Notes: generated by a model from the letters alone, not told the origin. A DNA stretch of 64,000 nt from a virus (IMGVR_UViG_3300021400_000128:32001-96000), one strand, 5' to 3'. Positions 14,532-64,000 are shown, numbered from the stretch's first letter. Made by a program: numbers and translations.

Positions 14532-14605
14532 TTAAAGAAAAAGAAGACAGTCACTATTATTGACTGCCTTCTTAGGGTCTTTTTGTCACTAAATCTATTA
14601 TAACA
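14532..14605 (-). promoter_or_regulatory. Late-leader element 1, upstream of TMP
   Basis: TGTTATAAT, then AGACCCTAAGAAGGCAGTCA-ataatag-TGACTGTCTTCT-TTTTCTTT. Confidence 0.85.
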
Positions 14606-14743
14606 TACTTAGTTATTCTCTTTATGTTTTGATTTCAACGTCATATATAACTTATTCTTTAGCGTTTACTATTTTAAATATCACAATGTTGTTCTATTTA
14701 CACTTTCCCTGTGCTTGATATAATTGAATTGCTGGAGGATAAT

Positions 14744-15241
14744 ATGAAAAAATACACATTACTTTTTGTTTTATTTATGTTGTTGATATCGGTAAGAATA
14801 GGATTTTGTCAGACTTGTGATTGTGAAGTTTTACAAAATGAAATCGACAATCTTAATATGCAAATTGACATATTGAAAGGTTATCGTTTTCAATTTGAAA
14901 ACGATAACCTTATTTCTTTTGGTGATTATGAAATATTATTTAAAGATATATATACATTAGAAGATAAAGATGATAAATATTTATCTATATTCATTCAGTA
15001 TTATAACAATTCCAATAAATCGAATAATTTTGAAAATTCAATTGGTTATAGATTTTTTGAAAATGGAATTGAATTAGATGTTGCATCTAAGCGTACAGAT
15101 AGATATATAAAGCCTGGAGCAAATATTCATATAAATTTAGTTTATAAATTACATTCTTCAAATGGAGTTATAGAATGTGATTTGTGGTCATTAGATAATC
15201 CTGATATTGTTCATTCCAGTGTTATTTATAATCTTGAATAA
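14744..15241 (+). CDS. Exported/membrane-anchored protein with an Ig-like (DUF5067/DUF4352-type) domain; moron
   Basis: Only credible plus-strand gene. Own TATAAT and GGAGG, signal peptide MKKYTLLFVLFMLLISVRIGFC, FENGIEL...IKPGA motif, very AT-rich. Confidence 0.65.
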   Translation: MKKYTLLFVLFMLLISVRIGFCQTCDCEVLQNEIDNLNMQIDILKGYRFQFENDNLISFGDYEILFKDIYTLEDKDDKYLSIFIQYYNNSNKSNNFENSIGYRFFENGIELDVASKRTDRYIKPGANIHINLVYKLHSSNGVIECDLWSLDNPDIVHSSVIYNLE

Positions 15242-15289
15242 ATCCGGATCATGCTTATGCCGGTGTAATTTACAAGTTCAAATTATCAA

Positions 15290-15310
15290 ATAGCCGGGTA
15301 TCCCGGCTAT
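15290..15310. terminator. Hairpin between convergent genes
   Basis: ATAGCCGGG-tat-CCCGGCTAT. Confidence 0.7.
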
Positions 15311-15318
15311 AATTTTGT

Positions 15319-15555
15319 CTATTCCCTTTTTTGATACAAATCCCATTCCGTCAGTGTCTCTTCATCATCCAGAATATCGGTTAACTTACATCCGAGCACG
15401 TTGCACAGCTTTAGCAGGATCGAAAATTCCGCCTTGTTGAGGTTGCGCCATCCCTGCTCGTAAGACCTGATTGTCTGAGTGTTGACACCTATCAGTTCCG
15501 CGATATCACTTTGCGTTAACGCTTTAGCTTTGCGTATTTCTTTCAATTTTGACAT
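15319..15555 (-). CDS. XRE-family helix-turn-helix regulator
   Basis: LKEIRKAKALTQSDIAELIGVNTQTIRSYEQG. Confidence 0.9.
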   Translation of the reverse strand: MSKLKEIRKAKALTQSDIAELIGVNTQTIRSYEQGWRNLNKAEFSILLKLCNVLGCKLTDILDDEETLTEWDLYQKRE

Positions 15556-15623
15556 TGTTGTGTTATAATTTTTTCATGAGCAGGGGATTGGGATTTTTCA
15601 ATCCCGCACCCCTATATTCTAAC

Positions 15624-15710
15624 TTAGCAAGCCGTCCGTGTGATTATCAGTGCCACTAACACCGCAATCAACAGGGCGGTTACTATTTTATATAATAGTT
15701 TTCTGCTCAT
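15624..15710 (-). CDS. 28-aa hydrophobic peptide MSRKLLYKIVTALLIAVLVALIITRTAC
   Basis: Manual translation. GAGAGGG RBS, downstream of a consensus promoter and followed by a hairpin. Confidence 0.6.
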   Translation of the reverse strand: MSRKLLYKIVTALLIAVLVALIITRTAC

Positions 15711-15801
15711 GATGTCAAAGTACCCTCTCTCTGAATCTAACCTCGCCTGAACGTTAGATATCTTCGATTCAGTATTTCGAATGTTTCCAATCGATACAAT
15801 A

Positions 15802-23143: not shown

Positions 23144-23159
23144 CCTTATCCTCCGTTTC

Positions 23160-23229
23160 TTAAACAAAAAAAGACAGTCATTATTTGACTGCCTTCTTAG
23201 GGTCTTGATGTCTATTTCTTATTTTACCA
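23160..23229 (-). promoter_or_regulatory. Late-leader element 2
   Basis: TGGTAAAAT...AGACCCTAAGAAGGCAGTCA-aataa-TGACTGTCTT, then a T-tract. Confidence 0.85.
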
Positions 23230-23265: not shown

Positions 23266-23294
23266 AAAAACCGGAGTATATCACTCCGGTTATT
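23266..23294 (-). terminator. Terminator after the major tail gene
   Basis: AACCGGAGT-gatat-ACTCCGGTT-TTTT. Confidence 0.75.
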
Positions 23295-24132: not shown

Positions 24133-24203
24133 TTAAAACAAAAAGAAGGCAAATCCTTTTATGGACTGCCTTCTTAGGGTCTTATCCTTTTCTTATTATA
24201 ACA
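24133..24203 (-). promoter_or_regulatory. Late-leader element 3
   Basis: TGTTATAAT...AGACCCTAAGAAGGCAGTCC-ataaa-AGGATTTGCCTTCT-TTTTG. Confidence 0.85.
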
Positions 24204-28294: not shown

Positions 28295-28341
28295 GATTTT
28301 TTCTCCCGTTTAAAGCCCGTCGGCATGTACCCGATGACGAC

Positions 28342-28415
28342 TTAAAAGAAAAGAAGGCAGTCATTCTCTGACTGCCTTCTTAGGGTCTCATCGTTCGATT
28401 ACTTGTATTATAACA
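28342..28415 (-). promoter_or_regulatory. Late-leader element 4, upstream of the scaffold/capsid operon
   Basis: TGTTATAAT...AGACCCTAAGAAGGCAGTCA-gagaa-TGACTGCCTTCTT-TTCTTTT. Confidence 0.85.
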
Positions 28416-28590
28416 TATTTTTTATATTTAGTGTAATTGTCAATATTTATGACATATTAATTATAAATTTAGTTATTTCTTATTCACTTTATTGATTTTT
28501 AGTAAAAAAAAAACCACTAAATATAGTGGTTATCTGTAAAAGTCGCTATTTCATCATCATTCAGCATACTACCTCGATTCCGATCCTGAA

Positions 28591-29000: not shown

Positions 29001-29092
29001 CCTCCGTGATTCAAATTATTGTTTTCAACTTACAAATATTATTATATGAGTTTTTATATATTTGTCAATGTTTTATTTAATTTTTATTACAT
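29001..29092 (-). promoter_or_regulatory. Early promoter cassette 2
   Basis: ATGT-N17-ACATTGACA-N16-TATAAT...TGTAAGTTGA...TTTGAATCACGGAGG. Confidence 0.85.
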
Positions 29093-29240: not shown

Positions 29241-30092
29241 TTAATCCCAATTGAAATTCTTTATTTCCATAACACCTGATGGCTCTGTTATTAATTCATC
29301 TGCAATTTTGAGCATTTCATTTTCAAGCTGCTCATATTTAGGAGATCCCATTTTATATTTTCTTTGCTCCTCATATACTTTGTGCATAACTGTTTCTTTT
29401 ATTGTAAATGAATTTTTTGTGTGAAATTGTACTTCAAAGAGTTTTCCATTTTTATTTTGAAGCGTGACATTAATCCCTTTATATGCCCAAGGCTTTGTCC
29501 AAAAGTTTTTAACTTGTATAAGGTTATATCCGGATTCTTGATATGCCTTTAAAGCTTTATTTACATCTTTACCAAATGATTCACTGTTTACTTCATTGGT
29601 ATAGCGAACAAGATCGTTCATTTGAGATGTGTCATTTTTCCCGGCAAGTCGATTTCTTTTTTGTGTAGCAGATGCTCTTGACTTACGTCTGTTTTTTTCT
29701 CCAAGCAGCGGAGCATGGATCATATCTGAAATTCTTTTAACATCTGCCGTAATTTCAGGTTCATTTTTCATTGCTGAATTGTATTCATTCATAAATGTAA
29801 ACTCATCATTTTTTGAAATGTTATTCATTATTTTATTTCCATCATCATCATAATTATTATTTAATATGTGCTGTATTCGATGTCGATCAATATAATGTTT
29901 TGTTTTGGAATTAATTACCCTTTGTCGTGCTTTTTCCTGTGCCGTTTTCTGTGCTTTTAGTTTTCGCTTGTAATCAGTTACCCTGATATATTTCCTTTTC
30001 ATAGCCGGTTTGCCATCATCTCGTAGTATTGGGTTACCGTCTTTATCTTTTCGGATAACCAGTATCGATTTGTAATCTCTGCTTCCACCCAT
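29241..30092 (-). CDS. MGG-leader protein with a RelA/SpoT-type small alarmone synthetase domain (Apk2/toxSAS-like)
   Basis: RRKS..S...K, DLVRYT, KNFW...YKGIN, FEVQFHT SAS motifs; leader shared with 31515..32612. Confidence 0.85.
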   Translation of the reverse strand: MGGSRDYKSILVIRKDKDGNPILRDDGKPAMKRKYIRVTDYKRKLKAQKTAQEKARQRVINSKTKHYIDRHRIQHILNNNYDDDGNKIMNNISKNDEFTFMNEYNSAMKNEPEITADVKRISDMIHAPLLGEKNRRKSRASATQKRNRLAGKNDTSQMNDLVRYTNEVNSESFGKDVNKALKAYQESGYNLIQVKNFWTKPWAYKGINVTLQNKNGKLFEVQFHTKNSFTIKETVMHKVYEEQRKYKMGSPKYEQLENEMLKIADELITEPSGVMEIKNFNWD

Positions 30093-30104: not shown

Positions 30105-30165
30105 TTAAATTAAAAGAAGGCTGAACACACAATCAGCCTTCTTAGGGTCTCTATGGGTAATTATA
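30105..30165 (-). promoter_or_regulatory. Late-leader element 5
   Basis: TATAAT-N9-AGACCCTAAGAAGGCTGA-ttgtgtgt-TCAGCCTTCTT-TT. Confidence 0.85.
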
Positions 30166-31160: not shown

Positions 31161-31256
31161 CCTCCATGATTCAAACAAATTGTTTTTCAACTTACATCAA
31201 TTATTATACATGATAATTATATATTTGTCAATGTTTAATATTATTTTTATTACATT
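31161..31256 (-). promoter_or_regulatory. Early promoter cassette 3
   Basis: AATGT-N17-ACATTGACA-N17-TATAAT...ATGTAAGTTGA...TTTGAATCATGGAGG. Confidence 0.85.
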
Positions 31257-34344: not shown

Positions 34345-35055
34345 TCAGGGTTGAATATCTCCCGCTGAAATCCATTTTGTACTCCCATCTTTCCATTGCA
34401 TGAGAAAATTATAGGAAACAACTTTCATCATATTTCCGTCAAGATCAGGTATTTCATATACGTTTCCATTGACTTTTAATACTGTTCCTTCCTCTCCTTT
34501 CGGATAGTAGACAGGATTCATTGTGTCATACCAACCGGCTTTAACATCATTCTTTAGCTTCACTTGTTTGCCTGCAAACTTCTTTTGTAATTCTTTCAAT
34601 TTTTCATTTACGGTAATCATTTTTGATGCTTTTAGAAATGAGGCGTTTCGGATTTTCGTTACCTTTTCAGGTGAATTTTTTGCTATTTCGAGAAGTATTT
34701 TTCGAATTCTCGATAATTGTTGCTGATTTTCACCCGTTCCAAAGTCTCCGTTTTTTAATTTTTTATCTAACCCGATAACGGCATTTTTATCTCTTTTATC
34801 AATAGCACGTAAATATTGCAGAACAGCTCTTTGCATTAAAGGTCTCTCATTTACGATCACAGCATCTTTATCATTACTGCCATGAATATTATCGAAATAT
34901 GTCATAACAGAATCAGGATTTATAGGTTGATTAATAATTTCAGAAATCAGTCTGTTGGCTTCTTTTTCATTGTCTTTATACGATCCGACACGTACATATT
35001 TACCATTCACTCGCTTATAAAGTGCCGCACCTGCATTATCACGTCCGCCGCCCAT
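34345..35055 (-). CDS. MGG-leader protein of unknown function
   Basis: Start refined to MGGGRDNAG (GGTG RBS); directly upstream of portal. Confidence 0.65.
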   Translation of the reverse strand: MGGGRDNAGAALYKRVNGKYVRVGSYKDNEKEANRLISEIINQPINPDSVMTYFDNIHGSNDKDAVIVNERPLMQRAVLQYLRAIDKRDKNAVIGLDKKLKNGDFGTGENQQQLSRIRKILLEIAKNSPEKVTKIRNASFLKASKMITVNEKLKELQKKFAGKQVKLKNDVKAGWYDTMNPVYYPKGEEGTVLKVNGNVYEIPDLDGNMMKVVSYNFLMQWKDGSTKWISAGDIQP

Positions 35056-35056
35056 G

Positions 35057-35533
35057 TCACCACCCCACATCTAATCCTGGAAATCTGCTCATTTCTGAAT
35101 CAAATCTTGTTGACTGCGTTATCGTGTTTCCGTTTTTGTCTTTAAATGAAAAAGTCAAATCCATAGCTCCATTGTTGATGGTGGAGCTTTGAATCGTTAT
35201 TCCATATTCTGAAAGAAGCTTTCTTAACATTTGCGGGTGTTCAAACAGTTGAGATAATGCTATTCTCATATCGTTGTATTTCGGTTGTATTTGTGAATTA
35301 TTCTGCTGATCGATTCCCGTGTATTCGTTTCGGGCAGTCTTGTTTATTGTTACAACCATGTTTTTGTCTCTTGCTTGTGTAGCCGCTGCGATTCCTGCAA
35401 TATACTCATACGCAGTTCCTTCGTAAACTCCACCACGACCTTGGAATGAGTGCTCCGCGAGAAATTCATCGATTGCGTTCCTTGCGGTCTGTTGTGTCTT
35501 TTTACCGTCTCTATATTCTGCACTTCCGCCCAT
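35057..35533 (-). CDS. MGG-leader protein of unknown function
   Basis: MGGSAEYRDGKK; first gene after leader 6. Confidence 0.65.
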   Translation of the reverse strand: MGGSAEYRDGKKTQQTARNAIDEFLAEHSFQGRGGVYEGTAYEYIAGIAAATQARDKNMVVTINKTARNEYTGIDQQNNSQIQPKYNDMRIALSQLFEHPQMLRKLLSEYGITIQSSTINNGAMDLTFSFKDKNGNTITQSTRFDSEMSRFPGLDVGW

Positions 35534-35544
35534 ATGTCACCGCC

Positions 35545-35604
35545 TTAAATAAAAAAAGGCACCTGTATGTACAAAGTGCCTTCTTAGGGTCTGTTTTTAT
35601 TATA
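35545..35604 (-). promoter_or_regulatory. Late-leader element 6, upstream of the portal operon
   Basis: TATAAT-N6-AGACCCTAAGAAGGCACTTTGTAC-atacag-GTGCCTT, then a T-tract. Confidence 0.85.
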
Positions 35605-35648
35605 ATTGATTTTGTTGTTATATGACTATTTATATTTACCGGAGCATT

Positions 35649-36308
35649 TTATGATTTTTTCGTCCATTGGCCGAGAATATATCGTTGATAGTCAGCTCCG
35701 ATATACATTGATTTGTATGATTCTTTTATGGTGTCTGGAATGTATTGATTGTCATCTATTGAAAAGTTGAGATATAGTGCATTCTTTTCAGAAGATTTTG
35801 TGATCCATTCTCTGAAAAACCAATTCGATTTATCAAGTGGGGTTGTGTTGAACCAGTATCGAGAATTCTTTATTGAGCTGCACCCAATAATATTTTCAAC
35901 AAATGATTTTGGTGTCAAGGGTGCTTGATCGAAAAAGGCCCCTGCAAAATTGAAATATTGTGCTTTTTTCACTGAATCATCATCGTGTGAATTGAACAGG
36001 TAGAATTGATTTGCAGTTTTATGTTTCTTGATTAGAACGTATCTCTGTTCTCTGTTGAAATCCATATTGTATTGAGTTTTTAATTCAGCATTCGATATGA
36101 TTTGTGACACAATATTTTTACTGCACGTTTGATAACTTAATCCACATAATGCAAAATCGTTATTATCAAAATTTTTCATTGCCCATTTGATAAATGTTTC
36201 GAGGATGATGGTGCTTTTTCCCGAATGAACCGCTCCGTCACATATCAGGGTTTTGAATTTTGTGTTCGGAAAATCAAGGATCTTTTTCTGTTTTTCACTT
36301 AGCTGCAT
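35649..36308 (-). CDS. Terminase large-subunit ATPase-domain paralogue, nuclease-less, with degenerate catalytic motifs
   Basis: Colinear with the TerL N-terminal half: GAVHSGKS vs GAIRSGKT, FFDQAP vs MFDEVA; ends at QRYILGQW. Confidence 0.8.
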   Translation of the reverse strand: MQLSEKQKKILDFPNTKFKTLICDGAVHSGKSTIILETFIKWAMKNFDNNDFALCGLSYQTCSKNIVSQIISNAELKTQYNMDFNREQRYVLIKKHKTANQFYLFNSHDDDSVKKAQYFNFAGAFFDQAPLTPKSFVENIIGCSSIKNSRYWFNTTPLDKSNWFFREWITKSSEKNALYLNFSIDDNQYIPDTIKESYKSMYIGADYQRYILGQWTKKS

Positions 36309-36345
36309 TGTTTTCTCCATTATTGTATTTCGCGCCAGGAGTGAA

Positions 36346-38169: not shown

Positions 38170-38198
38170 AAAAGCCCTCAGTTTAACGCTGTGAGCTT
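38170..38198 (-). terminator. Terminator after terL
   Basis: AGCTCACAG-cgttaaa-CTGAGGGCT-TTTTT. Confidence 0.65.
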
Positions 38199-39567: not shown

Positions 39568-39574
39568 TCTGATT

Positions 39575-40686: not shown

Positions 40687-40688
40687 AT

Positions 40689-41201: not shown

Positions 41202-41214
41202 AATACTCTCCTTT

Positions 41215-41358
41215 TTGACACTCCCCATGCCTAAAGGCAGGGGATTCTCTCTCGATGACGGTAACCCGCCAAGCATAAAAGAGCTATCTCCGTGTGCCCC
41301 ACGGTTAGTTCGTCTTTGACCCCATAGCTAAAGCAAGGGGATTGCAGACGGTTTTTTG
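41215..41358 (-). mobile_element. Non-autonomous IS605/IS1341-type mini-element (PATE-like), 144 bp
   Basis: Left-end hairpin CCCCTTGCTTTAGCTATGGGG; right end GAATCCCCTGCCTTTAGGCATGGGGAGTGTCAA identical to 44725..44903. Confidence 0.75.
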
Positions 41359-41365
41359 TTCAAGT

Positions 41366-41824: not shown

Positions 41825-42108
41825 CTCTGAACTTTAGAAACCCGATAGGTATTCATCATAGCGCCAAAATCATCTAACTGCTGCGACGATAAATCAACAC
41901 CGCGAAGGTCAAATGGACAAATATAATCCACTGTGGTAATATCAATTGCCAAAGACGCAAGGCTCAAAGGCAGTACACCGATGACGTGCTTTCCACGAAC
42001 ATCATCAGGCGTTGCTTGAGAAATAACTTTTCCGGTAATTCCACGCATCGCGAGCCAATCAATAAGTCCAGAATGTCTGGTAACAATGATAGTGTTGTTG
42101 TCTGTCAT
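41821..42108 (-). CDS. csx16: Csx16-like protein (candidate ring nuclease)
   Basis: VTRHSGLIDWL...DVRGKHVIGVLPLSLA...RGVDLS...GA signature of Csx16/VVA1548. Confidence 0.7.
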   Translation of the reverse strand: MTDNNTIIVTRHSGLIDWLAMRGITGKVISQATPDDVRGKHVIGVLPLSLASLAIDITTVDYICPFDLRGVDLSSQQLDDFGAMMNTYRVSKVQR

Positions 42109-42128
42109 AGTATTCTTCTTACAGCTTC

Positions 42129-42392
42129 CTAATTAAATTTCACATCAAGTTGTGCAAAATTAGGTATGATACCATATTCGGCGAGAATTTCTTCTGCTTC
42201 ACGAACTATTGTATGCAGTTCGTTAGGATAGGTTTCCCACGCAAAATCAGATGCCGCAATGGCATCATACCAGTGATGCTCCGCTTCGAGAATGCTGTTA
42301 CTGACGTAATTCAGTTCAGCCTGTTCCCAATAAGTGGTCAAACCTTCAGTGCTGTCATTGGTGTTGGTATCGTAATCGAAATTGCCGTTCAT
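42129..42392 (-). CDS. Acidic early hypothetical protein
   Basis: First gene after an early cassette. Confidence 0.65.
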   Translation of the reverse strand: MNGNFDYDTNTNDSTEGLTTYWEQAELNYVSNSILEAEHHWYDAIAASDFAWETYPNELHTIVREAEEILAEYGIIPNFAQLDVKFN

Positions 42393-42397
42393 GATTG

Positions 42398-42494
42398 CCT
42401 CCGTGATTCAAAATTTATTATTTAATCAACTTACATCTATTATTATATGCGTTAATATATATTTGTCAATGTCTTTATTTATTTTTATTACATT
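42398..42494 (-). promoter_or_regulatory. Early promoter cassette 4
   Basis: AATGT-N17-ACATTGACA-N16-TATAAT...ATGTAAGTTGA...TTTGAATCACGGAGG. Confidence 0.85.
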
Positions 42495-42916
42495 TACAAT
42501 TTTTTCGCAATTTCTTCAAGAGACTTCGTAAGTTCATCGTCTTCAACATCTTCAGCCTTATTGATGGAAATGCTCTGATTATCACGCCATCCTAACTGTT
42601 TCAAACTAAAAATTGCCGCTCCGTGCTTAATAGTTCCATACAGCATGCCCTGTTCAAGCAATACTTCTTTCCATCCTAAAAGCTCTTGTGCTTTTTCGCT
42701 CAAGTCTGCATTGTCCCGCTGCAATTGCATAACGTAATCATAATTCCATCCATTTTTCAGGCAGCATTCTTTGAATACAGGGATCCGCAGCGGTTTCCGT
42801 TGTCCGGTTTTTGTATATTGAGAACCGTCCACGTTGCACTCCTGCATGTATTTATCAATTTGGTTAATCATATATGGGATATCATATATTGGTTTTTTTG
42901 GTCTTCCTGCCGGCAT
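42494..42916 (-). CDS. terS: Terminase small subunit
   Basis: MPAGRPKK N-terminus, GAAIFSLKQLGWRD, DDELTKSL ending. Confidence 0.8.
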   Translation of the reverse strand: MPAGRPKKPIYDIPYMINQIDKYMQECNVDGSQYTKTGQRKPLRIPVFKECCLKNGWNYDYVMQLQRDNADLSEKAQELLGWKEVLLEQGMLYGTIKHGAAIFSLKQLGWRDNQSISINKAEDVEDDELTKSLEEIAKKL

Positions 42917-42928
42917 AATATCACCTCT

Positions 42929-42988
42929 TTAAAAAAAATAAGAAAGTGCAATGAATACACTTTCTTAGAGTCTTTTGTTATTATACCA
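42929..42988 (-). promoter_or_regulatory. Late-leader element 9, upstream of terS
   Basis: TGGTATAAT-N6-AGACTCTAAGAAAGTG-tattcattg-CACTTTCTTA, then a T-tract; compensatory changes in the stem. Confidence 0.8.
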
Positions 42989-43040
42989 GTTTTTATTATT
43001 TGTCAATATTAGTATTTGATTATTACTTTGTCAAACAGCT

Positions 43041-43259
43041 CTAAAAACCGCTTGTAGTCTTTTTTTTATTTTTTATGACATAACCAGGATTATGAAACAA
43101 TTCAGGATTACTTAAAAGTTCATTCATTAGTTTGTCAAGCGTCTCATATGCTTCTTTCACATTTTCTGGTGCATCATTATTCAATTTTCCCGTCTCCTCA
43201 TCATAATAAGGCTTAATAATCTTTAACAATGCTTTTGCTGTTTTCATTTTATCTTCCAT
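43041..43259 (-). CDS. Small partner (putative peptidase inhibitor/immunity)
   Basis: PYYDEETGKLNNDAPENVKEAYE; paralogous to 39575..39775. Confidence 0.65.
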   Translation of the reverse strand: MEDKMKTAKALLKIIKPYYDEETGKLNNDAPENVKEAYETLDKLMNELLSNPELFHNPGYVIKNKKKTTSGF

Positions 43260-43261
43260 TT

Positions 43262-44164
43262 TTATCCTCCATATCCTAATCTGTCAATTTCATCTAATAA
43301 TACCTTGACATATGCCTTTGAAACTTCACTGGCATTGTCTTTATTAGTATATATATCTGCAAATGCTTCCGCAAATGCTTCTTTTGTTGGGCTGCCGCCA
43401 TATGACTTCGCATCACTGGCATACCCCGAGATTTCATGTCGGAAAGATGGTAAGGCTTTTTTATATCCTATTGATTTTTTTGCTTCCTTTTCCAGACGTT
43501 GTAAAGTTTTACTTTTTCTGATATCATCCATCATATTATAAGTATCAAAAAAACCTTTTTTCTTTGCATCTTTCAACATTCTGCCTAATAAGTAATTATG
43601 TATCGCATGACCGAATTCATGTGCAACCACAGATTCAGGTGTCATATTTGGGATATCAAATCCTCTTTCAGCTCCTGAAAACAATTTTGGATCATCTACC
43701 TTTGAAAAATGTACGCCTAACCCAAAGGTTTGACGTGTTTCACCAGTAGCCCCACTGAATGTAGATTTAATTTCTGCGGCAGTTGTACCACCAGGATCAA
43801 CGATGTAATGGAATCCATTTATAGCCCCCTGCATAAAGGGATATCTTTCTTCAAGTTCAGAAATGGTATTCAACGCCCGTTTTATCATTTGTAAATCATG
43901 GTTCTCCGTAAAACCCTTTGCAACATTTGTTTCGCCATATTTTTCAATCAACACAGAACGCAGATCTTCTTTTGTCTGCGCATCATTTATTTTATCCCAA
44001 AAAGACTTTTCTTTTGGCTGCTTTGCGGTTAACCGTTTTTGCCGCTCCACTTCTTTCGCTGCCTGTCTCTGCTGTTCAAGTTCATCGATTTCACTTTGAG
44101 GAGCCCCGTTCTGCAATGCTCTTGCTATCTTTTTTGCTAACCTGTAGCTTGCTGATCCACCCAT
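43262..44164 (-). CDS. MGG-leader zinc metallopeptidase (zincin)
   Basis: MGGSASYRLAKK leader; HEFGHAIH; ISGYA...EAFAEAFAD. Confidence 0.8.
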   Translation of the reverse strand: MGGSASYRLAKKIARALQNGAPQSEIDELEQQRQAAKEVERQKRLTAKQPKEKSFWDKINDAQTKEDLRSVLIEKYGETNVAKGFTENHDLQMIKRALNTISELEERYPFMQGAINGFHYIVDPGGTTAAEIKSTFSGATGETRQTFGLGVHFSKVDDPKLFSGAERGFDIPNMTPESVVAHEFGHAIHNYLLGRMLKDAKKKGFFDTYNMMDDIRKSKTLQRLEKEAKKSIGYKKALPSFRHEISGYASDAKSYGGSPTKEAFAEAFADIYTNKDNASEVSKAYVKVLLDEIDRLGYGG

Positions 44165-44176
44165 GTCAACCATCCT

Positions 44177-44237
44177 TTAAAGCAAAAGAAGACTGAACAT
44201 TGATCGCTCAGTCTTCTTAGGAATCTCGCTGATTATA
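44177..44237 (-). promoter_or_regulatory. Late-leader element 10
   Basis: TATAAT-N5-AGATTCCTAAGAAGACTGAGC-gatcaat-GTTCAGTCTTCTT-TTG. Confidence 0.8.
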
Positions 44238-44283
44238 ATTATATCATGAGCGGTGATATATTTTACAGTTTATCTCATCATCC

Positions 44284-44682
44284 TCATCCTAATTCCCAGA
44301 CATCTTCATCTGAGTCTCGGTACTCGAACATATCATCCGTAGGTTGTGTTCTGAGCTCCGGATTTTCTTCGATCTGCTTTATCACACCCCAGGCAAGGTC
44401 ATCCAGAACGTCTTCATAGTCATACCATGCCCGTGACGTATCGAAAAGAGCATTAGCGATATAATTGACCGTCCTGTCACCCATCGCCATCAGATAGCGT
44501 GCAGCGGGATTGCACGTTTCCTTTCCATATTCGATTCCGACACGATCACCATCGTTGTTATAACGATAGATGATCCTGGAAGTAGCACGAACCATCTCCC
44601 CGGCAACGCTTTCCGCTTTTCCCTCGAAAGGAACCAATTCATCAAACAGTTGATTTAATTGATCCTCGTAAATGCTCATCAT
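44284..44682 (-). CDS. Acidic hypothetical phage protein
   Basis: LVPFEGKAESVAGEMVRA..RI.YRY.NDGD. Confidence 0.7.
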   Translation of the reverse strand: MMSIYEDQLNQLFDELVPFEGKAESVAGEMVRATSRIIYRYNNDGDRVGIEYGKETCNPAARYLMAMGDRTVNYIANALFDTSRAWYDYEDVLDDLAWGVIKQIEENPELRTQPTDDMFEYRDSDEDVWELG

Positions 44683-44974
44683 TTTTGACCTTCCTTTACA
44701 ATTTGCTGGCCTCGTTTTATTGCTTTGACACTCCCCATGCCTAAAGGCAGGGGATTCTTAAGAAGGTTGCTAAGATAGCCTTATTCTTAAAGGGCTTGCC
44801 AATAGCCCGCTATCCAGTCTTTCAAAATTGAAATTCTGTTTACATTTCCGTTACCGCCTTATATCCCCATAGTTGAAGCGAGGGGTTTTACGGCTGTTTT
44901 CTGATAAAATCACCGTACCAGTTTGTTTCGAATTGAAAATCAAAATTCTTCAGCATTTGCTGTCGAAGTGTCAT
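44679..44974 (-). pseudogene. 38-aa ORF interrupted by the mini-IS
   Basis: Removing 44725..44903 restores MTLRQQMLKNFDFQFETNWYGDFIAIKRGQQIVKEGQK*, with a GAGGAG RBS. Confidence 0.65.
44725..44903 (-). mobile_element. Non-autonomous IS605/IS1341-type mini-element (PATE-like), 179 bp
   Basis: Inserted 3' of TTTAT without duplication; left-end hairpin CCCCTCGCTTCAACTATGGGG; right end finishes GTGTCAA. Confidence 0.8.
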
Positions 44975-44986
44975 GTCATTCTCCTC

Positions 44987-45154
44987 TCAGCAAACCGCCA
45001 TCATCTGCTGCCAAATGCACATTTTTTCGTTATCATCATAATCGGCAGCGTCCAAATCGTCATATACTTCGATCATGGCGTACTATTTTTCTTCTAAAGT
45101 GCTGATGGTGGACAACTTGTTAAGATAGTTGGCGAAAATTGTGTTTGCGTTCAT
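44987..45154 (-). pseudogene. Early small gene with an in-frame TAG at 45083-45085
   Basis: MNANTIFANYLNKLSTISTLEEK*YAMIEVYDDLDAADYDDNEKMCIWQQMMAVC. Confidence 0.5.
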
Positions 45155-45160
45155 AGGTAA

Positions 45161-45255
45161 CCTCCGTGATTCAAAATTTATTATTTAATCAACTTACATT
45201 TATTATTATATGCGTTATTATATATTTGTCAATGTCTTCTTTTATTTTTATTACA
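45161..45255 (-). promoter_or_regulatory. Early promoter cassette 5
   Basis: TGT-N17-ACATTGACA-N16-TATAAT...ATGTAAGTTGA...TTTGAATCACGGAGG; near-identical to cassette 4. Confidence 0.85.
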
Positions 45256-45295
45256 ATTAATCGTAAAGAAAAAACCGGGATATCCGGTTGTAATA

Positions 45296-46195
45296 TTATT
45301 TTGAATTATCGTATGTTACTTTAAATCCCGCTGATTCGATTTGTTGAATTGTCGCCGCATGTGATGGATTATTTTTCCATGTCTTTGGTACAGAGAAATG
45401 ATCTATATCATTGAGTGTTACATCACCGTGGAATTGTAATTCAGCGTATTGGTATCCATAGCTGCCGGTGTCATATAATTGTTTTGCTTGTTCGTAAAAA
45501 TAACGAGCTTCACCTTCAGTAATTCTATCCGGTTCACCCCATTCTGCACTATATTTTGAAATGATACGGGGATTTGACACCCAACTCGGATATAAAACAT
45601 CATACAACGAATCTCCAAGGGTCATTGTTGTACGGCTCACCATTGTATCTTTTTTGAAGACAATATCCAAATTACCGTAAGATGCAGCAGAAACAGAATC
45701 AGGACTTCCAAGATAGCCGTATTTTTCATAATCAGCGGGAGCTAAGACACCATCATATTCAAATGCTGTTCGCGAAAAATAATCTCTTGCGTCGAGATCT
45801 TCTGCACCCATTGATGTACCCGTCTCGAACTGATTCATAATTCTTCCACTGGATAAAATCTTTGCAACTGTACTTTCTTTTATTCTTCGGCGAAATTCAA
45901 GTTTCTCAACTGCTTTGCGTAAATATTCTTCTCCACGATCGATTAGTTTCTGTGCGTCTACGGGCGAGTTATCCCGTAAGTTCTTTGACTTCTCAATATG
46001 CCCTGTGAAATTCTTTAATAATTTTGGTAATTCTGTATTTACAGGATTATTCTTTTCTCGTAAATATTGCTCATATGCTTCTTTTGCTTGCTGCCGTACA
46101 TAATCTTCATCGAATTCAAAAATTTCATTTTCGTATTCTTTTCTTTTCTTTTCGATAAATCTTTTAACAAATCTGAATTTTGCACTTCCACCCAT
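45296..46195 (-). CDS. MGG-leader protein with a DUF3626-like (putative ART-fold) domain
   Basis: SGRIMNQFETGTSMG...KYGYL...YG...RTTMTLGDS...YAELQFHGDVTLNDI. Confidence 0.65.
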   Translation of the reverse strand: MGGSAKFRFVKRFIEKKRKEYENEIFEFDEDYVRQQAKEAYEQYLREKNNPVNTELPKLLKNFTGHIEKSKNLRDNSPVDAQKLIDRGEEYLRKAVEKLEFRRRIKESTVAKILSSGRIMNQFETGTSMGAEDLDARDYFSRTAFEYDGVLAPADYEKYGYLGSPDSVSAASYGNLDIVFKKDTMVSRTTMTLGDSLYDVLYPSWVSNPRIISKYSAEWGEPDRITEGEARYFYEQAKQLYDTGSYGYQYAELQFHGDVTLNDIDHFSVPKTWKNNPSHAATIQQIESAGFKVTYDNSK

Positions 46196-46206
46196 GTGTT
46201 ACCACC

Positions 46207-46257
46207 TTAAATAAAAAAAGAAGACTAAACTTTTTTAGCTTAGCCTTCTTAGGGTCC
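46207..46257 (-). promoter_or_regulatory. Late-leader element 11 (no clear -10 box)
   Basis: GGACCCTAAGAAGGCTAAGC-taaaaaa-GTTTAGTCTTCTT-TTTTT. Confidence 0.8.
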
Positions 46258-46274
46258 TGTAGCTGATGATTTAC

Positions 46275-46592
46275 TTATTTTCTTATTCTCTGCTCGTAAA
46301 TTTTCTCTTCACGATCAATTAATTTTTTGATATGCGACTTTACTTTATCCGGTACTGGAACATTTTTGTCACGGAGATCCTCTAATCCTTCCGTTTCCCA
46401 TCCATCATCATACACTCTGGCAATGTTAAGGAATGAATCTAAAACTCCACTCTCACCATTTCCGTAATAAGTAGTATGTTTATGTAATTTATCTTTATAA
46501 TCCGGGAATTGTACAAGGTAGAAGTCGGAATATTCTTCATCACCAACTTCTTTCTTTTCACGTCCAATTACTTTCATCTTGATTTCTGCCAT
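46275..46592 (-). CDS. Hypothetical protein (candidate immunity for 45296..46195)
   Basis: Last gene of the early run, directly upstream of leader 11. Confidence 0.55.
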   Translation of the reverse strand: MAEIKMKVIGREKKEVGDEEYSDFYLVQFPDYKDKLHKHTTYYGNGESGVLDSFLNIARVYDDGWETEGLEDLRDKNVPVPDKVKSHIKKLIDREEKIYEQRIRK

Positions 46593-46611
46593 ATTTACCT
46601 CGCTGATTTAA

Positions 46612-46989
46612 TTATACATCATCTGATTTACGATGGTTTGATAATTCTGTGGAAAAACCTTCTGGATATCGAGCTTTGAGCTTATCCACATTCATTTGCA
46701 TGATTTCGTCAAGCTTCCACCCAAAAGAATGTGCAATCATGGCACAATACCAAAGTGTGTCTCCAAGCTCTTTTTTTGCGTGTTCTCTGTCAAGTTTCGC
46801 GCTATGGAATATCCACTTTTTTATCATGTCATTGAGCTCTCCTACTTCACCGGAAAGACCAAGGCAGCCATTCAGAATACCACCAACGTCCAAAGTCGTG
46901 TCATTACAGTCCATTCAGAAGTTTAACCGTTCTGTAGCCTTGCCATCGTTAGTTCTCATTGCTAATTCTTGATATTCGTTTCCAGTCAT
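46612..46989 (-). pseudogene. mazG: MazG-like NTP pyrophosphohydrolase with an in-frame TGA at 46915-46917
   Basis: MTGNEYQELAMRT...LNF*MDC...LGLSGEVGE...KELGD..WY...NVDKLKARYPEGF; the RBS AGGAG precedes 46989. Confidence 0.75.
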
Positions 46990-46999
46990 ACATCTCTCC

Positions 47000-47674
47000 T
47001 CACATATGAATATTAACACAAGTCAAATAATAATCACCTGGAATGCTGTCAAGTATTTTGTTGTATTCATCATTCCATTGTGTATTAAATTTTCCTTCTT
47101 GTTCGATCCATTCTCCATCTGGTTTCAATACCGCCCACGGAGTCCATGTAAAAAGAAATTCTGCAAACGTCCGCTTTTCTGGTGACCAATTAGGATTCGA
47201 GGAGCAATCAAGAACATGCTGCACCCATCTGCGCCAAATCAAAGGGAACTGTTTTCTCAGCTTTTCTTCTGGTGCCGCAAGGTCAATTCGTGGAACATCT
47301 TTGATCTGAATATAATTGTTGGGCTGTTCGTACAGGCCACAACCTTCTTTAATTATGTAATAGTCCCATTTCGCATCGGGATTATTTGCAGAAATAGCAT
47401 TACCTTCTTTATCGATATCTTCATACAATTCCATTTTTAAACTGTAATAGCGAATCGTGCCGATATCATCTTTATCCAGTGCTTCAAAAAGCTCTCTTTT
47501 TCCTTGTTCCGATAATAAATCTGAATATTTTCTTAATCGTTTTTTTACCTCTGGATATTCAGCGCAAATATATGGATCCACTTCTAAATCCTGATCGAAT
47601 GGTTCCATGCACTCTGCTATCATCTTCAGGGTTGGTTTTTTCTCTGTGATAACCGCAACTTCTAAATGTCCCAT
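47000..47674 (-). CDS. Hypothetical phage protein
   Basis: MGH..VAVI...NPDAKWDYY...AVLKPDGEW...VNIH. Confidence 0.7.
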   Translation of the reverse strand: MGHLEVAVITEKKPTLKMIAECMEPFDQDLEVDPYICAEYPEVKKRLRKYSDLLSEQGKRELFEALDKDDIGTIRYYSLKMELYEDIDKEGNAISANNPDAKWDYYIIKEGCGLYEQPNNYIQIKDVPRIDLAAPEEKLRKQFPLIWRRWVQHVLDCSSNPNWSPEKRTFAEFLFTWTPWAVLKPDGEWIEQEGKFNTQWNDEYNKILDSIPGDYYLTCVNIHM

Positions 47675-51730: not shown

Positions 51731-52065
51731 TCCTCTTTCGATTCTAATATTTTTAGTGCGGATTTTGGCCATCTTGTATCCTCATTCCAACCGTGATACC
51801 CTTTTGGTTGATAGCATTCGATTTCTTCACCATCAAAGTGAAGAACAGGTGTCGCCCAAGTGGAAGCAAGATAAGTGGCACTTTTTACTGGTCTACCATT
51901 TTCATAGATAGTTCCGCCAGTCCAAAACCAATCTTCAGCCAATCCGGCACTTGCCGTTTCCGGTTTTCTCTCTTTTATGATTTTCGCCGCTTTATCCCAA
52001 TCAAAGACTTTCCCATTTCCGTAAGGTGTTGATTGATTTATTTCAATCTCTTTTAATAAAGCCAT
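51727..52065 (-). CDS. Hypothetical phage protein
   Basis: VFDWDKAA...AGLAEDW..TGG...LASTWATP. Confidence 0.7.
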   Translation of the reverse strand: MALLKEIEINQSTPYGNGKVFDWDKAAKIIKERKPETASAGLAEDWFWTGGTIYENGRPVKSATYLASTWATPVLHFDGEEIECYQPKGYHGWNEDTRWPKSALKILESKEE

Positions 52066-52411
52066 TTTCCACTACCCTTTCTTTTTTATATGCAAGCCAC
52101 GTTTTCCCGTAATTAGCAGCATAAAACAATCTTGGATCAGTCAAAATTCCTTCAATAAAAGATTGTCTGATAACTACCCAGCCGCAATGTTTCTTTCCGA
52201 TACTTTGAGATTCTATCCAGATAGGTTTTCCGACCATCTGTTGAAGTTCTTCATATTCAAGTGGCTCGTTTTCAACATTTTCAAGCATTTCTCGATACTC
52301 TGTCAGATAGTGGATCGTATCTGACAGCTCATTTTCATGCAGCTTAATCATTTGGTCATCATCAGGCTGCAAATCAGACAACCATGTGATTATTTCAGTT
52401 AAAGATTTCAT
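52043..52411 (-). CDS. Hypothetical protein
   Basis: PLEYEELQQMVGKPIWI...YGKTWLAY. Confidence 0.65.
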   Translation of the reverse strand: MKSLTEIITWLSDLQPDDDQMIKLHENELSDTIHYLTEYREMLENVENEPLEYEELQQMVGKPIWIESQSIGKKHCGWVVIRQSFIEGILTDPRLFYAANYGKTWLAYKKERVVENGFIKRD

Positions 52412-57950: not shown

Positions 57951-58006
57951 TTAAATAAAAAGTAGACACTTGTATGTACAAAGTGCCTTCTTAGGGTCTG
58001 ATTATA
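57951..58006 (-). promoter_or_regulatory. Late-leader element 12
   Basis: AGACCCTAAGAAGGCACTTTGTAC-atac-AAGTGTCTAC-TTTTT; loop nearly identical to element 6. Confidence 0.8.
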
Positions 58007-58180
58007 TTTTACCTTATTTTATTATTCACATCGTTGTCATTTCATCCCATATATAGTGATATGGTATCCATCGTGTGGAAGTGTCGAATTCCGTCACAGG
58101 CTGAATCACGGGTATCCGGTACTCACCTGTTCCAACGAACATCGCTTTTTCAAGATTTAATAATGGGAGCTGACTTTTCT

Positions 58181-59464: not shown

Positions 59465-59480
59465 ATTACTCCTAATGTGT

Positions 59481-59538
59481 AAATAAGAAGGCACCTGTTA
59501 ATTAAGGTGCCTTCTTAGGGTCTGTGTTTATTATAACA
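59481..59538 (-). promoter_or_regulatory. Late-leader element 13
   Basis: TGTTATAAT-N6-AGACCCTAAGAAGGCACCT-taattaac-AGGTGCCTTCTTA-TTT. Confidence 0.85.
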
Positions 59539-61838: not shown

Positions 61839-61854
61839 TTCTCTCTCCTCTTAT

Positions 61855-62529
61855 TTAACGCACCATTGTTTTTACATATTTATTTCCAATGGAACGATAT
61901 TCTTTCATTTCCTCTGATGTCGGTGAATGCAGACCGCGTTGAAACACCTCCGTTGTATCCATGAAAGGCTGTAAATACCAGATAGTGGATCCTTGTAAAT
62001 ACCTTCCGGTTTCTTCGATATCCCTTTGGGAATGAAATTCTCTGACAACGGTCGTGCGAAATTCATAAGGAACACCACTACTACGGATAATTTCTATCGA
62101 TTGCTGAATAAGATCGGTTTTCAGATTTTGGATTCCGGATGTTTTAGCGTATTTTTCAAAAGAGTTTTTTACATCCATTGCAATGTAATCAATGATATTT
62201 TGTGTTAGTATCTTTTGTAAAGTTTCAGGATTGCTTCCGTTCGTATCAAGTTTGATGGAATATCCAATCTGCTTGATTTCCTGCAAAAAAGGAATAATAT
62301 CTTGATGTATTAAAGGTTCTCCACCTGTTACACATACACCATCTATTATTCCTTTGCGCTTTTGCAGATATTGAAAAACAGTTTCCGGATCAATTGATTC
62401 ATCACCATTCACAATCCCACTGTTATAACAAAATGGGCAGTGAAAATTACAACCTGTCGTAAATATTACGCAGGCTGTTTTATCCGGATAATTTAGCAAA
62501 CTGAGCTTTTGGAATCCGCCAATCTTCAT
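61855..62529 (-). CDS. nrdG: Anaerobic RNR activating radical-SAM enzyme
   Basis: CNFHCPFC, TGGEP, LDTNG, EFRTT; adjacent to nrdD. Confidence 0.92.
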   Translation of the reverse strand: MKIGGFQKLSLLNYPDKTACVIFTTGCNFHCPFCYNSGIVNGDESIDPETVFQYLQKRKGIIDGVCVTGGEPLIHQDIIPFLQEIKQIGYSIKLDTNGSNPETLQKILTQNIIDYIAMDVKNSFEKYAKTSGIQNLKTDLIQQSIEIIRSSGVPYEFRTTVVREFHSQRDIEETGRYLQGSTIWYLQPFMDTTEVFQRGLHSPTSEEMKEYRSIGNKYVKTMVR

Positions 62530-62545
62530 TCTTTCGTCCTATAGC

Positions 62546-62608
62546 AAAAATAAAAGAAAGCACAATTCAATTACGAAATGTGCCTTCTTAGGGTCTGAGG
62601 TAATTATA
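62546..62608 (-). promoter_or_regulatory. Late-leader element 14
   Basis: TATAAT-N6-AGACCCTAAGAAGGCACA...TGTGCTTTCTT-TTATTTTT. Confidence 0.85.
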
Positions 62609-62715
62609 ACTGATTTTCTTTATGTGTTTTTTTTATTTTAATTGGCGATATCCTTGATGGAATATACTTATCATCTGTTTACTGAATTATCGCCGGATAT
62701 ATGAGCTTCGACATA

Positions 62716-63039
62716 TTACCTTTCCTGGTACTTCGGACATTTCTCATTATCGAAATATACCCCAGTGGGTTTTGTTTCATACTTTTCACATGATCCGGCA
62801 GTGTAGTCTGTTGTCTTACGACCGCTGAACATCTTTCCTGCAAATTTACACGTTCTGCAAGCCATGTTCTTTTGCTTTTCACGCTGACGCTCTGCTGATG
62901 CCGCCATAGCTTCATCTTCTGAATAATAACGGAGCCATACGCTTTTCCTGCTGTCTGAAAGACTGTTAAATTCCTTCTTTTCTTCATCTGAAAGGTCATT
63001 CCAGATTTCATCCAAATATTTTTTCTCACTATCTGTCAT
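62716..63039 (-). CDS. Cys-containing partner (putative immunity) of the ART
   Basis: CRTCKF...CEKY..KP..V...EKC..Y; directly downstream of the ART. Confidence 0.6.
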   Translation of the reverse strand: MTDSEKKYLDEIWNDLSDEEKKEFNSLSDSRKSVWLRYYSEDEAMAASAERQREKQKNMACRTCKFAGKMFSGRKTTDYTAGSCEKYETKPTGVYFDNEKCPKYQER

Positions 63040-63051
63040 TTTTCACCTTCT

Positions 63052-63948
63052 TTAAATTTTACTCCAATCAATTTCAGGGCGTTCAATAGTTTTTGCATCT
63101 TGTCCAACTATAGTAAACACGACTTGTGGAGTTCCATATCTACCACCAGTTCTGTTGATCGCAATCGGTTTCAGTTTATAACCTCTCTGTAAGATGATTT
63201 CAAATTCAGTTCCATAATCAGATTGTTTTGAAACACCATCCCATCCTAAACCGCTTCCCATCCCATGAATACTAAAAGGTTCTGCGTAAATACCTTTTGA
63301 TCCTTTCGGTACAAAAATCTTCATTTCCACGCCACTAAATCCACTTTCAGAAGTCGCACCTGTTGACATAAAGTTATTAACATCTATGATTTTACCTTGA
63401 TCGATGGCTTCCTGAACACCATCCAACATTGCTGGTATAGGCTGAGCAAGCATTAAACCAAACATTCTGTTCATATGTCGTGTTGATACTCCGCGCCGCA
63501 CCCAGATATCTTCTGGAATCTCGGTTTTATCCAAAGCAGCTGTCAGCTGATTCACACGTTCCATTGTTCCATCGTAAAGGTATTCTGTAGGATCCAGTCT
63601 TCCACCTAATAATTTATTCATTGAATCATAAGCACCACCGGTAAATTCATAAGCAGCATCTCTTTCATCATCTGTAAAGCTATTCCATGCTTTACCGGAG
63701 CTTTCCCGGAATTTATCATCAACTTCTTGTTTGTCTTTAGTCCATATCGCATTATCTAATCGTTTTTGATCGTATGATTCACGGTATGGGCTTTGATTTT
63801 CTGAATTCTGCTGTCTTCTTTTTTCTCGTTCCGCTTCTTTTGCTGCTTGTCTCTTGCGTTCAAGATCATCAATTTCAGTCTGCGGAGCTCCATTCAGCCT
63901 TGCATTGGCTATTTTCTTTGCTAATCGATAACTTGCTGATCCACCCAT
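63052..63948 (-). CDS. MGG-leader ADP-ribosyltransferase (VIP2/C3-like R-S-ExE)
   Basis: FTGGAY..MN..L, VRRG, FMST, VPKGSKGIY, EFEIILQRG. Confidence 0.85.
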   Translation of the reverse strand: MGGSASYRLAKKIANARLNGAPQTEIDDLERKRQAAKEAEREKRRQQNSENQSPYRESYDQKRLDNAIWTKDKQEVDDKFRESSGKAWNSFTDDERDAAYEFTGGAYDSMNKLLGGRLDPTEYLYDGTMERVNQLTAALDKTEIPEDIWVRRGVSTRHMNRMFGLMLAQPIPAMLDGVQEAIDQGKIIDVNNFMSTGATSESGFSGVEMKIFVPKGSKGIYAEPFSIHGMGSGLGWDGVSKQSDYGTEFEIILQRGYKLKPIAINRTGGRYGTPQVVFTIVGQDAKTIERPEIDWSKI

Positions 63949-64000
63949 AGAAAAGACACCTCCTAATCAAGATGCCCTTTCTTAGAGCGCACATCTTTTT
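63949..64000 (-). promoter_or_regulatory. Late-leader element 15, RBS-occluding variant, truncated upstream
   Basis: GCGCTCTAAGAAAGGGCATC-ttgattagga-GGTGTCTTTTCT-ATG. Confidence 0.7.

Follow-up and report, generated by a model that had tools for sequence, protein, structure and literature searches.

Repeated promoter-terminator leaders before the operons of a temperate gut phage as candidate antitermination switches

What governs a phage genome in which one short sequence stands, always in the same orientation, before operon after operon? The question is raised by a 64,000-nt stretch of DNA (the window), which covers bases 32001-96000 of an IMG/VR virus record (IMGVR_UViG_3300021400_000128) that is 136,915 bp long and has terminal repeats. 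A first-pass annotation of the window had described about 15 copies of a leader made of a short motif, a hairpin and a U-tract, each just upstream of a minus-strand gene. It had proposed that the leaders terminate short RNAs by default until a phage factor releases the late genes. We call the motif the box, and the box with its terminator hairpin a class II cassette. From the sequence analysis below, we hold to be about evenly poised the reading that the cassettes are promoter-proximal terminators relieved when a trans-acting factor binds the box in the nascent RNA. Positions are those of the window unless given as genome positions.

The phage, of about 137 kb and about 40% G+C, comes from ruminant-gut metagenomes, and its transcription runs nearly all on the minus strand. 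It is temperate and siphovirus-like. A tyrosine integrase and a CI-like repressor (helix-turn-helix plus S24) lie on the plus strand at genome 20.8-22.7 kb, and the leftward early operon begins with a Cro-like gene, an ERF recombinase and replication genes. A megablast search of 24 kb against GenBank phages gave no matches.

Anatomy of the cassettes

The box, GACCCTAAGAAGGC on the minus strand, has 11 exact copies in the window where 0.22 are expected, a count reached by none of 100 shuffles; the repetition is stronger than the first-pass annotation had stated. All exact copies share one orientation, and the minus-strand RNA reads GACCCUAAGAAGGC. Two close variants (42959 and 44211) and two sites of a related kind, class IIb (40652 and 63976), complete the window set, so that 13 of the 15 sites earlier listed as leaders do have the terminator form and two are not terminators. 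The rest of the genome adds a variant cassette before the holin gene (genome 113338) and a class IIb site (genome 97262), which brings the number of operons concerned to about 17. A covariance model built from the cassettes recovers exactly these copies, with none in the early region, and searches tolerating 3-4 mismatches found no further hairpin-bearing variants in the phage genome. Rfam gave no matches at gathering thresholds across the whole window and none at E <= 1 in 35000-47000. A literature search on the box sequence matched only unrelated primers; the motif was in no paper found and in no Rfam family. The box is thus an asymmetric 14-15-bp site with many intergenic copies, in one orientation relative to transcription. 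Its placement upstream of minus-strand genes holds at all sites, and the genes named behind it were confirmed for the tape measure protein (TMP_3), the Gp15-type chaperone (Phage_Gp15), capsid (Phage_capsid_4), TerL, ParB_N with a C5-methylase, DUF5662, DUF4417, NrdG and NrdD.

The anatomy of the unit was examined in 59 non-redundant cassettes, taken from this phage and from relatives. Across positions -1 to +14 (A-GACCCUAAGAAGGC) the information content amounts to 1.2-2 bits per position, and immediately outside it drops to about zero; the search pattern that collected the cassettes had itself fixed positions 5-6 and 8-11. The last eight nucleotides of the box (positions 7-14) form the 5' arm of a hairpin that continues for 2-9 further pairs of free sequence. 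The register between box and hairpin is invariant across cassettes. The hairpins have about 10-19 predicted pairs, a mean free energy of -17 kcal/mol and loops of 3-10 nt with unrelated sequences. A U-rich tail follows, with at least 5 U in the first 8 nt in 42/59 cassettes and mostly 5-7 U per 8. A stable G+C-containing stem-loop and a U-rich tract are thus both present, and in a generic terminator scan the cassette stems were the best terminator-like sites in 22.5-42.5 kb. By its sequence, the unit appears to be a canonical intrinsic terminator that would end transcripts some 40-65 nt from the start. The U-tract that had been described for every leader is found at the 13 terminator-type sites and is absent from 40652 and 63976.

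The pairing is also supported by covariation, in agreement with the compensatory changes noted at first pass. In a MAFFT alignment 91% of stem cells are paired, versus 45-64% in slid controls, and the stem covariation score was reached in 0/500 shuffles. Stem positions 15-20 include all Watson-Crick pair types; at box positions 9 and 13 a constant G faces either C or U, 12-15 times each; and the rare box changes G12A, G13A and C14U have compensating partners. G.U pairs occur on the sense strand only.

The 5' portion of the box, AGACCCU, is unpaired, and GACCCU is constant across all lineages, as the first-pass annotation had proposed for the window. Its pairing in cis, with the downstream leader or ribosome-binding site, came to -4.7 kcal/mol against -4.3 kcal/mol for shuffled 8-mers and was better in 34/59 cassettes. 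Since this segment is conserved, yet unpaired and without a better-than-random partner in cis, it would require a partner in trans. A likeness of the box to the anti-Shine-Dalgarno sequence at the 16S 3' end was considered and, judged by eye, is poor. The antisense activator RNA earlier suggested as a partner fared no better. No complement of the box with <=3 mismatches exists in the whole phage genome, and no duplex better than -20 kcal/mol was found outside the cassettes' own opposite strand, which makes an antisense RNA from this phage unlikely.

Nearly all cassettes begin with a promoter of one kind. A -10 hexamer with at least 5/6 matches is present in 57/59, TG-extended in 31, and accompanied by a -35 in only 4, so that the set has the sequence of extended -10 sigma-A promoters. 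Hexamer and box are separated by 7-29 nt, most often by 7, a spacing that makes the conserved A the predicted start; the box begins at predicted +2 in 18/59 cassettes. The -10 boxes, often TG-extended and without an obvious -35, that had been noted in the window are borne out at 12/13 terminator-type sites (>=5/6 matches, the register of TAAAAT at 57985 being read by eye). In 7 of these 12 the hexamer lies 7 nt before the box G (6 nt before the conserved A), a start-compatible spacing. The exception is the cassette at 46243, which like its orthologue in the collinear contig C7 (below) has box and terminator with no -10. At 23191 and 28374 the order is the upstream gene's ordinary terminator, then the cassette promoter, then the cassette terminator. 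Because these box-less terminators already stand upstream of two cassette promoters, the cassette hairpin is a leader element and not merely the terminator of the previous operon.

The class IIb units (40652, 63976 and genome 97262) share only the core CUAAGAARGG (DNA CTAAGAARGG), with GAYRUGCGCY before it. The hairpin here takes in the ribosome-binding site and stops at the ATG, and no U-tract follows. The prefix CGCUCUAAG has what we take to be a resemblance to lambda boxA (CGCUCUUA), a lead only.

A second promoter class differs sharply. It comprises about 16 small units, class I, in which a TTGACA-TATAAT promoter of full consensus is joined to a conserved block upstream and to a conserved leader that has no hairpin. 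They are scattered genome-wide; several, which look like morons or early genes, are closed by ordinary terminators. Their parts are TGTAATAAAAATAA, a perfect TTGACA-16/17-TATAAT, the leader TAAATGTAAGTTGA and the ribosome-binding site GAATCACGGAGG, before small genes; class I of C7 follows the same plan, but its leader (TATrTATAGTTGA) has diverged. The existence of two such different promoter classes fits a temporal or conditional division.

Conservation, proposed mechanism and rival explanations

Relatives show that the box is kept while its surroundings change. Fragments from IMG/VR, ENA and Logan with TerL identities of 77-92% carry the same box before various genes. C7, a 148-kb contig binned in a goat-jejunum metagenome-assembled genome (MAG), is collinear with this phage; its TerL has 94% amino-acid identity, most of its proteins 30-85%, and its DNA 65-80%. 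It has 17 cassettes with an identical box, whereas the class I leader has diverged. The holin cassette variant GUCUCUAAGAAAGC is found in both large phages at the orthologous site, with compensatory stem differences. More distant phages (TerL 47-49%) have one or two cassettes with the box variants GACCCU(A/G)AAUAAGGCG, GACCCUAAAAAGGC and GACCCUGAAAAGGU. These stand before a holin or scaffold operon and are each followed by a terminator, except in L207, where no clear terminator follows the box. In the 30-kb phage G001 there is only one cassette, which has the exact box and separates the last of the early genes from the first late one. The position of the cassette in such small relatives is that of lambda PR'-tR', and this placement shows an old, selected element tied to the opening of late genes. 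IMG/VR scans for variant boxes gave only chance or coding matches, plus one duplicate of L211. In different relatives the same cassette precedes non-homologous genes, and it flanks the variable genes for proteins starting MGG (described with the features below). Relatives have been binned in a 'Flexilinea' MAG and a 'Bacillota' MAG, though binning is not proof of host, and far-end open reading frames (ORFs) of C7, examined for host, had no PDB homologues.

We propose the following mechanism. A host sigma-A-type extended -10 promoter without -35 would place the RNA start at A-GACCCUAAGAAGGC or as much as about 20 nt upstream of it. By default the polymerase would release a short RNA, and the 17 operons (lysis, nucleotide metabolism, packaging, head and tail) would stay silent; such default silencing would be needed in the lysogen by a temperate phage with constitutive promoters. 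In lytic growth a trans factor would recognise the single-stranded box, its site being the unpaired AGACCCU and the AAGAAGGC arm. By holding the 5' arm it would keep the hairpin from forming, and the polymerase would read on. At class IIb sites the same factor would open the hairpin around the ribosome-binding site and so allow translation. The promoter, box, hairpin and U-tract, with their conservation, covariation and placement, are observed directly; from them we infer the termination, its relief, the timing and the agent. Recognition at the level of RNA rather than DNA is favoured because the box is coupled invariantly to two kinds of hairpin while its distance from the promoter is free. 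The default termination with regulated read-through put forward at first pass is consistent with the promoter and terminator anatomy, the box-hairpin register and the cassette at the early/late boundary; its antisense version is not supported, nor is its restriction to late genes, since the nrdDG, ParB/methylase and holin operons are also gated.

Which protein might act as the factor? The sole positional candidate is outside the window, in keeping with the earlier remark that the window has no obvious antiterminator gene. The only small non-structural gene common to box-bearing phages encodes an orphan protein of 55-63 aa and follows a VRR-NUC or DUF1064 nuclease gene. In this phage it lies at the end of the early operon (genome 134146-134328). 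It is immediately upstream of the cassette in L152, G001 and L226/227/228 (three lineages), five genes from it in L211, and about 20 kb away in both large phages. The protein belongs to no Pfam family and is rare, with 29 clusters in a set of 1.8 billion representatives. Its fold, predicted with confidence, has one helix and four strands (pLDDT, the predicted local distance difference test score, 85), with no PDB sequence match and no Foldseek match (best VIA Z 4.1); Atlas gave only a weak lead, to DUF2292 (0.80). Protein-based scans for additional loci found none in IMG/VR and 3 close relatives in metagenomes. The small protein is a lead by position, a placement that suits a late regulator and a last early gene alike. 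That it is a sequence-specific antiterminator which binds the single-stranded RNA box AGACCCUAAGAAGGC, holds the arm of the terminator or ribosome-binding-site hairpin and so switches on 17 operons at once seems to us doubtful. The idea that a Q gene directly precedes the first (holin) cassette was also considered and rejected, as the neighbours there are not conserved among G000, C7, L152, L211 and L207.

Several points weigh against antitermination by a factor that reads the box in RNA. Pfam and PHROG scans of about 220 ORFs matched no known family of antiterminators, transcription-elongation factors or RNA-binding regulators (Q-family, NusG paralogues, HutP, ANTAR, CAT_RBD, cold-shock or sigma factors), with the limit that divergent Q proteins can escape Pfam. 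The small protein is slightly acidic, has no fold match and always follows a nuclease gene, so that its position may merely mark the end of the early operon. A general antiterminator that binds RNA polymerase would not need a box. The U-tract of the 59509 cassette is the weakest of the set. Finally, an invariant 5' arm opposite a 3' arm that wobbles would be just as likely to arise from recognition of the box in double-stranded DNA, and this asymmetry does not tell RNA reading from DNA reading.

The latter possibility leads to the first rival, in which the box is a DNA operator, bound either by a repressor or roadblock (stoperator-like) or by a Q/AlpA-type antiterminator loaded on the duplex at +1 to +15, and the hairpin is a separate safety device. 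A temperate phage with an integrase and a CI-like repressor must silence some 17 constitutive promoters; the start of the box at predicted +2 noted above suits an operator, as does the conserved initial transcribed sequence that class I also has; and an invariant box with a free 3' arm suits DNA as well as RNA recognition. Asymmetric, many-copy intergenic sites of 14-15 bp in one orientation also match stoperators (PMC9283540, PMC6550527). The register of the box is fixed to the hairpin, however, and never to the -10 (7-29 nt), where loading of the Q type needs a fixed promoter geometry. The cassette at 46243 and its orthologue have box and hairpin with no promoter, in class IIb this core is followed by an RNA hairpin of another kind, and we know of no reason for an operator to coincide every time with the 5' arm of a terminator. 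Moreover, the CI-like repressor is of the dimeric LexA type and is expected to bind a palindrome. We consider a DNA operator unlikely.

Somewhat less likely again is a general, box-independent change in RNA polymerase brought about by a small protein like p7 or gp39, the box being a 5' stabiliser, a processing site or the site of a host RNA-binding protein. Phage proteins that bind RNA polymerase are slightly acidic, as is the small conserved protein here. The full -35/-10 of class I against the extended -10 with terminators of class II is the division exploited by P23-45 gp39 (PMC3351154). An identical box in phages at 65-80% nucleotide identity would suit a conserved host partner, yet the associated MAG has no match to the box or its complement at <=1 mismatch, and its 2-mismatch matches outside the phage contig are about as many as in the control. 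This explanation also leaves the overlap of the box with the terminator arm unaccounted for.

Could the short terminated RNAs be the product, with read-through secondary? Some 17 loci with the common 5' seed AGACCCU would then act on targets in host or phage, or titrate a protein. A single-stranded 5' seed, a terminator hairpin and a U-tail are the typical layout of a small RNA, and termination at PR' in lysogens yields the functional small RNA StxS (PMC7547250). Set against this, a search of the phage gave no target complementary to the box, the small relatives carry only one copy, and every copy stands directly before an operon with no other promoter, which makes read-through obligatory. We find the explanation improbable.

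Last, T4-type phages use promoter-stem-loop cassettes as recombination boundaries, and cassettes that stand before non-homologous genes and flank variable MGG genes in a phage with an ERF recombinase recall them; it is nevertheless very improbable that ours are module boundaries with ordinary promoter and terminator function and no dedicated factor, as a stretch of 15 nt offers very little for homologous exchange, the flanks adjoining the box carry no information, single-cassette lineages keep the box, and a position-specific variant is kept at orthologous sites. After antitermination through the box in RNA, the rivals rank in falling order of probability as DNA operator, general modifier of RNA polymerase (with the box serving RNA stability or processing), functional short RNAs and recombination boundary.

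Features of the window and neighbouring genes

The features are collected in Table 1.

Table 1. Cassettes and related features on the minus strand of the window. The spacer is the number of nt between -10 hexamer and box; boxes marked exact read GCCTTCTTAGGGTC on the plus strand.
Feature	Extent	-10 and spacer	Box	Hairpin and tail	Genes or remarks
Class II	14532-14605	TGnTATAAT (14597-14605), 17 nt	14566-14579, exact	14541-14573, U-tract	tape measure gene
Class II	23159-23229	TGnTAAAAT, 16 nt	23191-23204, exact	23168-23198, U-tract	138-aa / Gp15-type chaperone operon
Box-less conventional terminator	23269-23291				ends upstream gene; upstream of cassette promoter
Class II	24134-24203	TGnTATAAT, 13 nt	24168-24181, exact	24143-24175	262-aa tail protein (phrog_3099, SbsC_C Ig-like domain)
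Class II	28342-28415	TGnTATAAT, 19 nt	28374-28387, exact	28351-28381	284-aa putative scaffold + capsid operon
Box-less conventional terminator	28512-28531				ends class I 'moron' gene; upstream of cassette promoter
Class II	30105-30165	TATAAT, 10 nt	30136-30149, exact	30114-30143	283-aa MGG protein
Class II	35544-35604	TATAAT, 7 nt	35578-35591, exact	35553-35585	158-aa MGG protein, 241-aa protein, 568-aa putative portal (named by position; no Pfam match)
Class II	39510-39567	TATAAT, 7 nt	39541-39554, exact	39519-39548, U9	terL
Class IIb	40623-40686	TAAAAT	40652-40667, TGCGCTCTAAGAAAGG	9 bp; ribosome-binding site in loop, 3' arm abuts ATG at 40622; no U-tract	277-aa MGG protein
Class II	42930-42988	TTGACA -35 present	42959-42972, variant GACTCTAAGAAAGT	stem changes compensated	140-aa putative terS
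Class II	44177-44237		44211-44224, variant ATTCCTAAGAAGAC	44186-44218	303-aa MGG protein
Class II	46209-46257	no recognisable -10	46243-46256, exact	terminator	299-aa MGG protein
Class II	57951-58011	TAAAAT, 7 nt	57985-57998, exact	57960-57992	ParB_N / C5-methylase operon
Class II	59475-59538	TGnTATAAT, 7 nt	59509-59522, exact	59484-59517	DUF5662/DUF4417
Class II	62545-62608	TATAAT, 7 nt	62582-62595, exact	62554-62589	nrdG-nrdD
Class IIb	63949-63991		63976-63991, TGCGCTCTAAGAAAGG	hairpin with ribosome-binding site; ATG at 63948	298-aa MGG protein
Class I, window	15802, 21451, 29041-29068, 31203-31231, 42442-42469, 45205, 54111, 54347
Class I, genome positions	11611, 98679, 103199, 106515, 111571, 117237, 132703, 134060

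An extra conserved leader block, UCAUCGGGUA-N-GCCGACGGGC, lies between the cassette and the scaffold gene (28300-28345, minus strand). It is found at the homologous place in L120, L146, L152, L207 and L211, and is kept even in distant relatives that have no box there.

The MGG(S/G)-start proteins form a paralogous set on the minus strand (29241-30092, 35057-35533, 39789-40622, 43262-44173, 45296-46195 and 63052-63948, with another at genome 96473-97231), and every one of their genes has its own class II or IIb leader. Weak matches link them to a head-morphogenesis PHROG and to the zincin domain of the anthrax lethal-factor type. An ADPrib_exo_Tox (ADP-ribosyltransferase-domain) match was found among the unassigned ORFs of the window, and in the relative L146 a 206-aa ADPrib_exo_Tox gene is just upstream of a 558-aa gene in the portal position.

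A second family comprises seven paralogues of a protein of about 130 aa (genome 6868-7338, 7308-7775, 1856-2479, 84043-84411, which is window 52043-52411, 120739-121104, 128276-128689 and 129218-129805). All seven match a single C7 gene (95646-96023), and one has zinc-ribbon matches.

Between the tail-assembly genes and the tape measure leader is inserted a pair of ORFs. One encodes 78 aa (15319-15555, minus strand) and is apparently a small XRE-type HTH_3 protein, an assignment read from the sequence, the batch Pfam scan having carried no ORF label; it adjoins a plus-strand ORF at 14711-15241. Together the two may represent a moron or a toxin-antitoxin pair. Three near-identical 40-nt hairpins (CGTCTTT-ACCCCATAGCTAAAGCAAGGGG...) occur at 41310-41351 and 44853-44897 (plus strand) and at genome 98546-98586, near two genes (genome 97318-98514 and 125164-126294) for TnpB (OrfB_IS605 / Cas12f1-like TNB). 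The hairpins probably represent IS200/IS605-type ends or parts of omega-RNA.

Significance and comparison with known systems

Late-gene control is poorly understood in phages of Gram-positive and other anaerobic gut bacteria, and the textbook antitermination systems, Q and N, use one or two sites. The temperate phage described here, 137 kb long, seems to have its whole genome wired by about 17 identical leader attenuators, in a design that recurs as a single copy in smaller relatives and that shows how a prophage can safely carry many strong constitutive promoters. If a small phage protein does read the RNA box, the pair would be a new case of RNA-protein recognition and a switch that is compact, portable and orthogonal, needing a 60-nt part and one small gene. 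The covariance model of the cassette makes it possible to annotate the starts of late operons in related uncultured phages.

Among known systems, P23-45 has late promoters of the extended -10 type served by an antiterminator, gp39, which blocks -10/-35 promoters and spares extended -10 ones (PMC3351154). Its gp39 and Xp10 p7 resemble what we propose, in that late promoters have an extended -10 and no -35, and one small protein redirects promoter use as well as suppressing intrinsic termination (PMC3351154). Unlike the candidate factor here, they act with no specific RNA or DNA box, and no homologue was detected in this phage. Mycobacteriophage stoperators (L5 gp71 type) likewise comprise many asymmetric intergenic sites of 13-14 bp in one orientation (PMC9283540, PMC6550527), but they are DNA roadblocks for a monomeric repressor, uncoupled to hairpins and U-tracts, whereas our box is always a terminator arm. 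The start-associated sequences (SAS/ESAS) of Cluster K mycobacteriophages are an asymmetric 13-bp repeat just before many genes, often with an inverted repeat, a variable spacer and a better conserved left arm (PMC3203893). They differ in lying at the ribosome-binding-site position of early genes with no promoter or U-tract, and are unrelated in sequence and hosts.

Other known systems act through RNA. Lambda N/nut also has a short linear RNA box beside a leader hairpin at a variable distance from the promoter. In the cassettes, by contrast, the loops are not conserved, so that there is no boxB, and the terminator is formed by the hairpin itself; each operon here has one site, against processive action from two sites in lambda. 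HutP, and LicT/SacY at the RAT, work in the way proposed here, binding nascent RNA over a stretch that takes in the 5' arm of the terminator and so blocking the hairpin. The cassettes differ in lacking both UAG repeats and a RAT stem-loop, the phage gave no match to a HutP or CAT_RBD domain, and the regulon would be the whole late programme of a phage instead of a catabolic operon.

In architecture and placement the cassettes recall lambdoid PR'-tR' and Q. There, a promoter that is always on is followed at once by a terminator, lysogens make a short RNA (6S and StxS are such by-products, StxS arising by termination from PR'), and the late genes, lysis first and then packaging and structure, are opened by antitermination (PMC7547250). 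The single cassette of the small relatives, right after the last early gene, fits the same plan. Unlike the one site of Q, the cassettes number 17 dispersed copies here, and their element overlaps the terminator arm at a free distance from the -10 (7-29 nt). No -10-like pause element of the Q type was found, the best hexamer in the box, TAAGAA (read from sequence), lacking the final T. Recognition of the cassette box is probably of RNA, and not of DNA as in Q. The cassettes may thus represent a previously undescribed form of phage late-gene antitermination, a type of control that is itself known.

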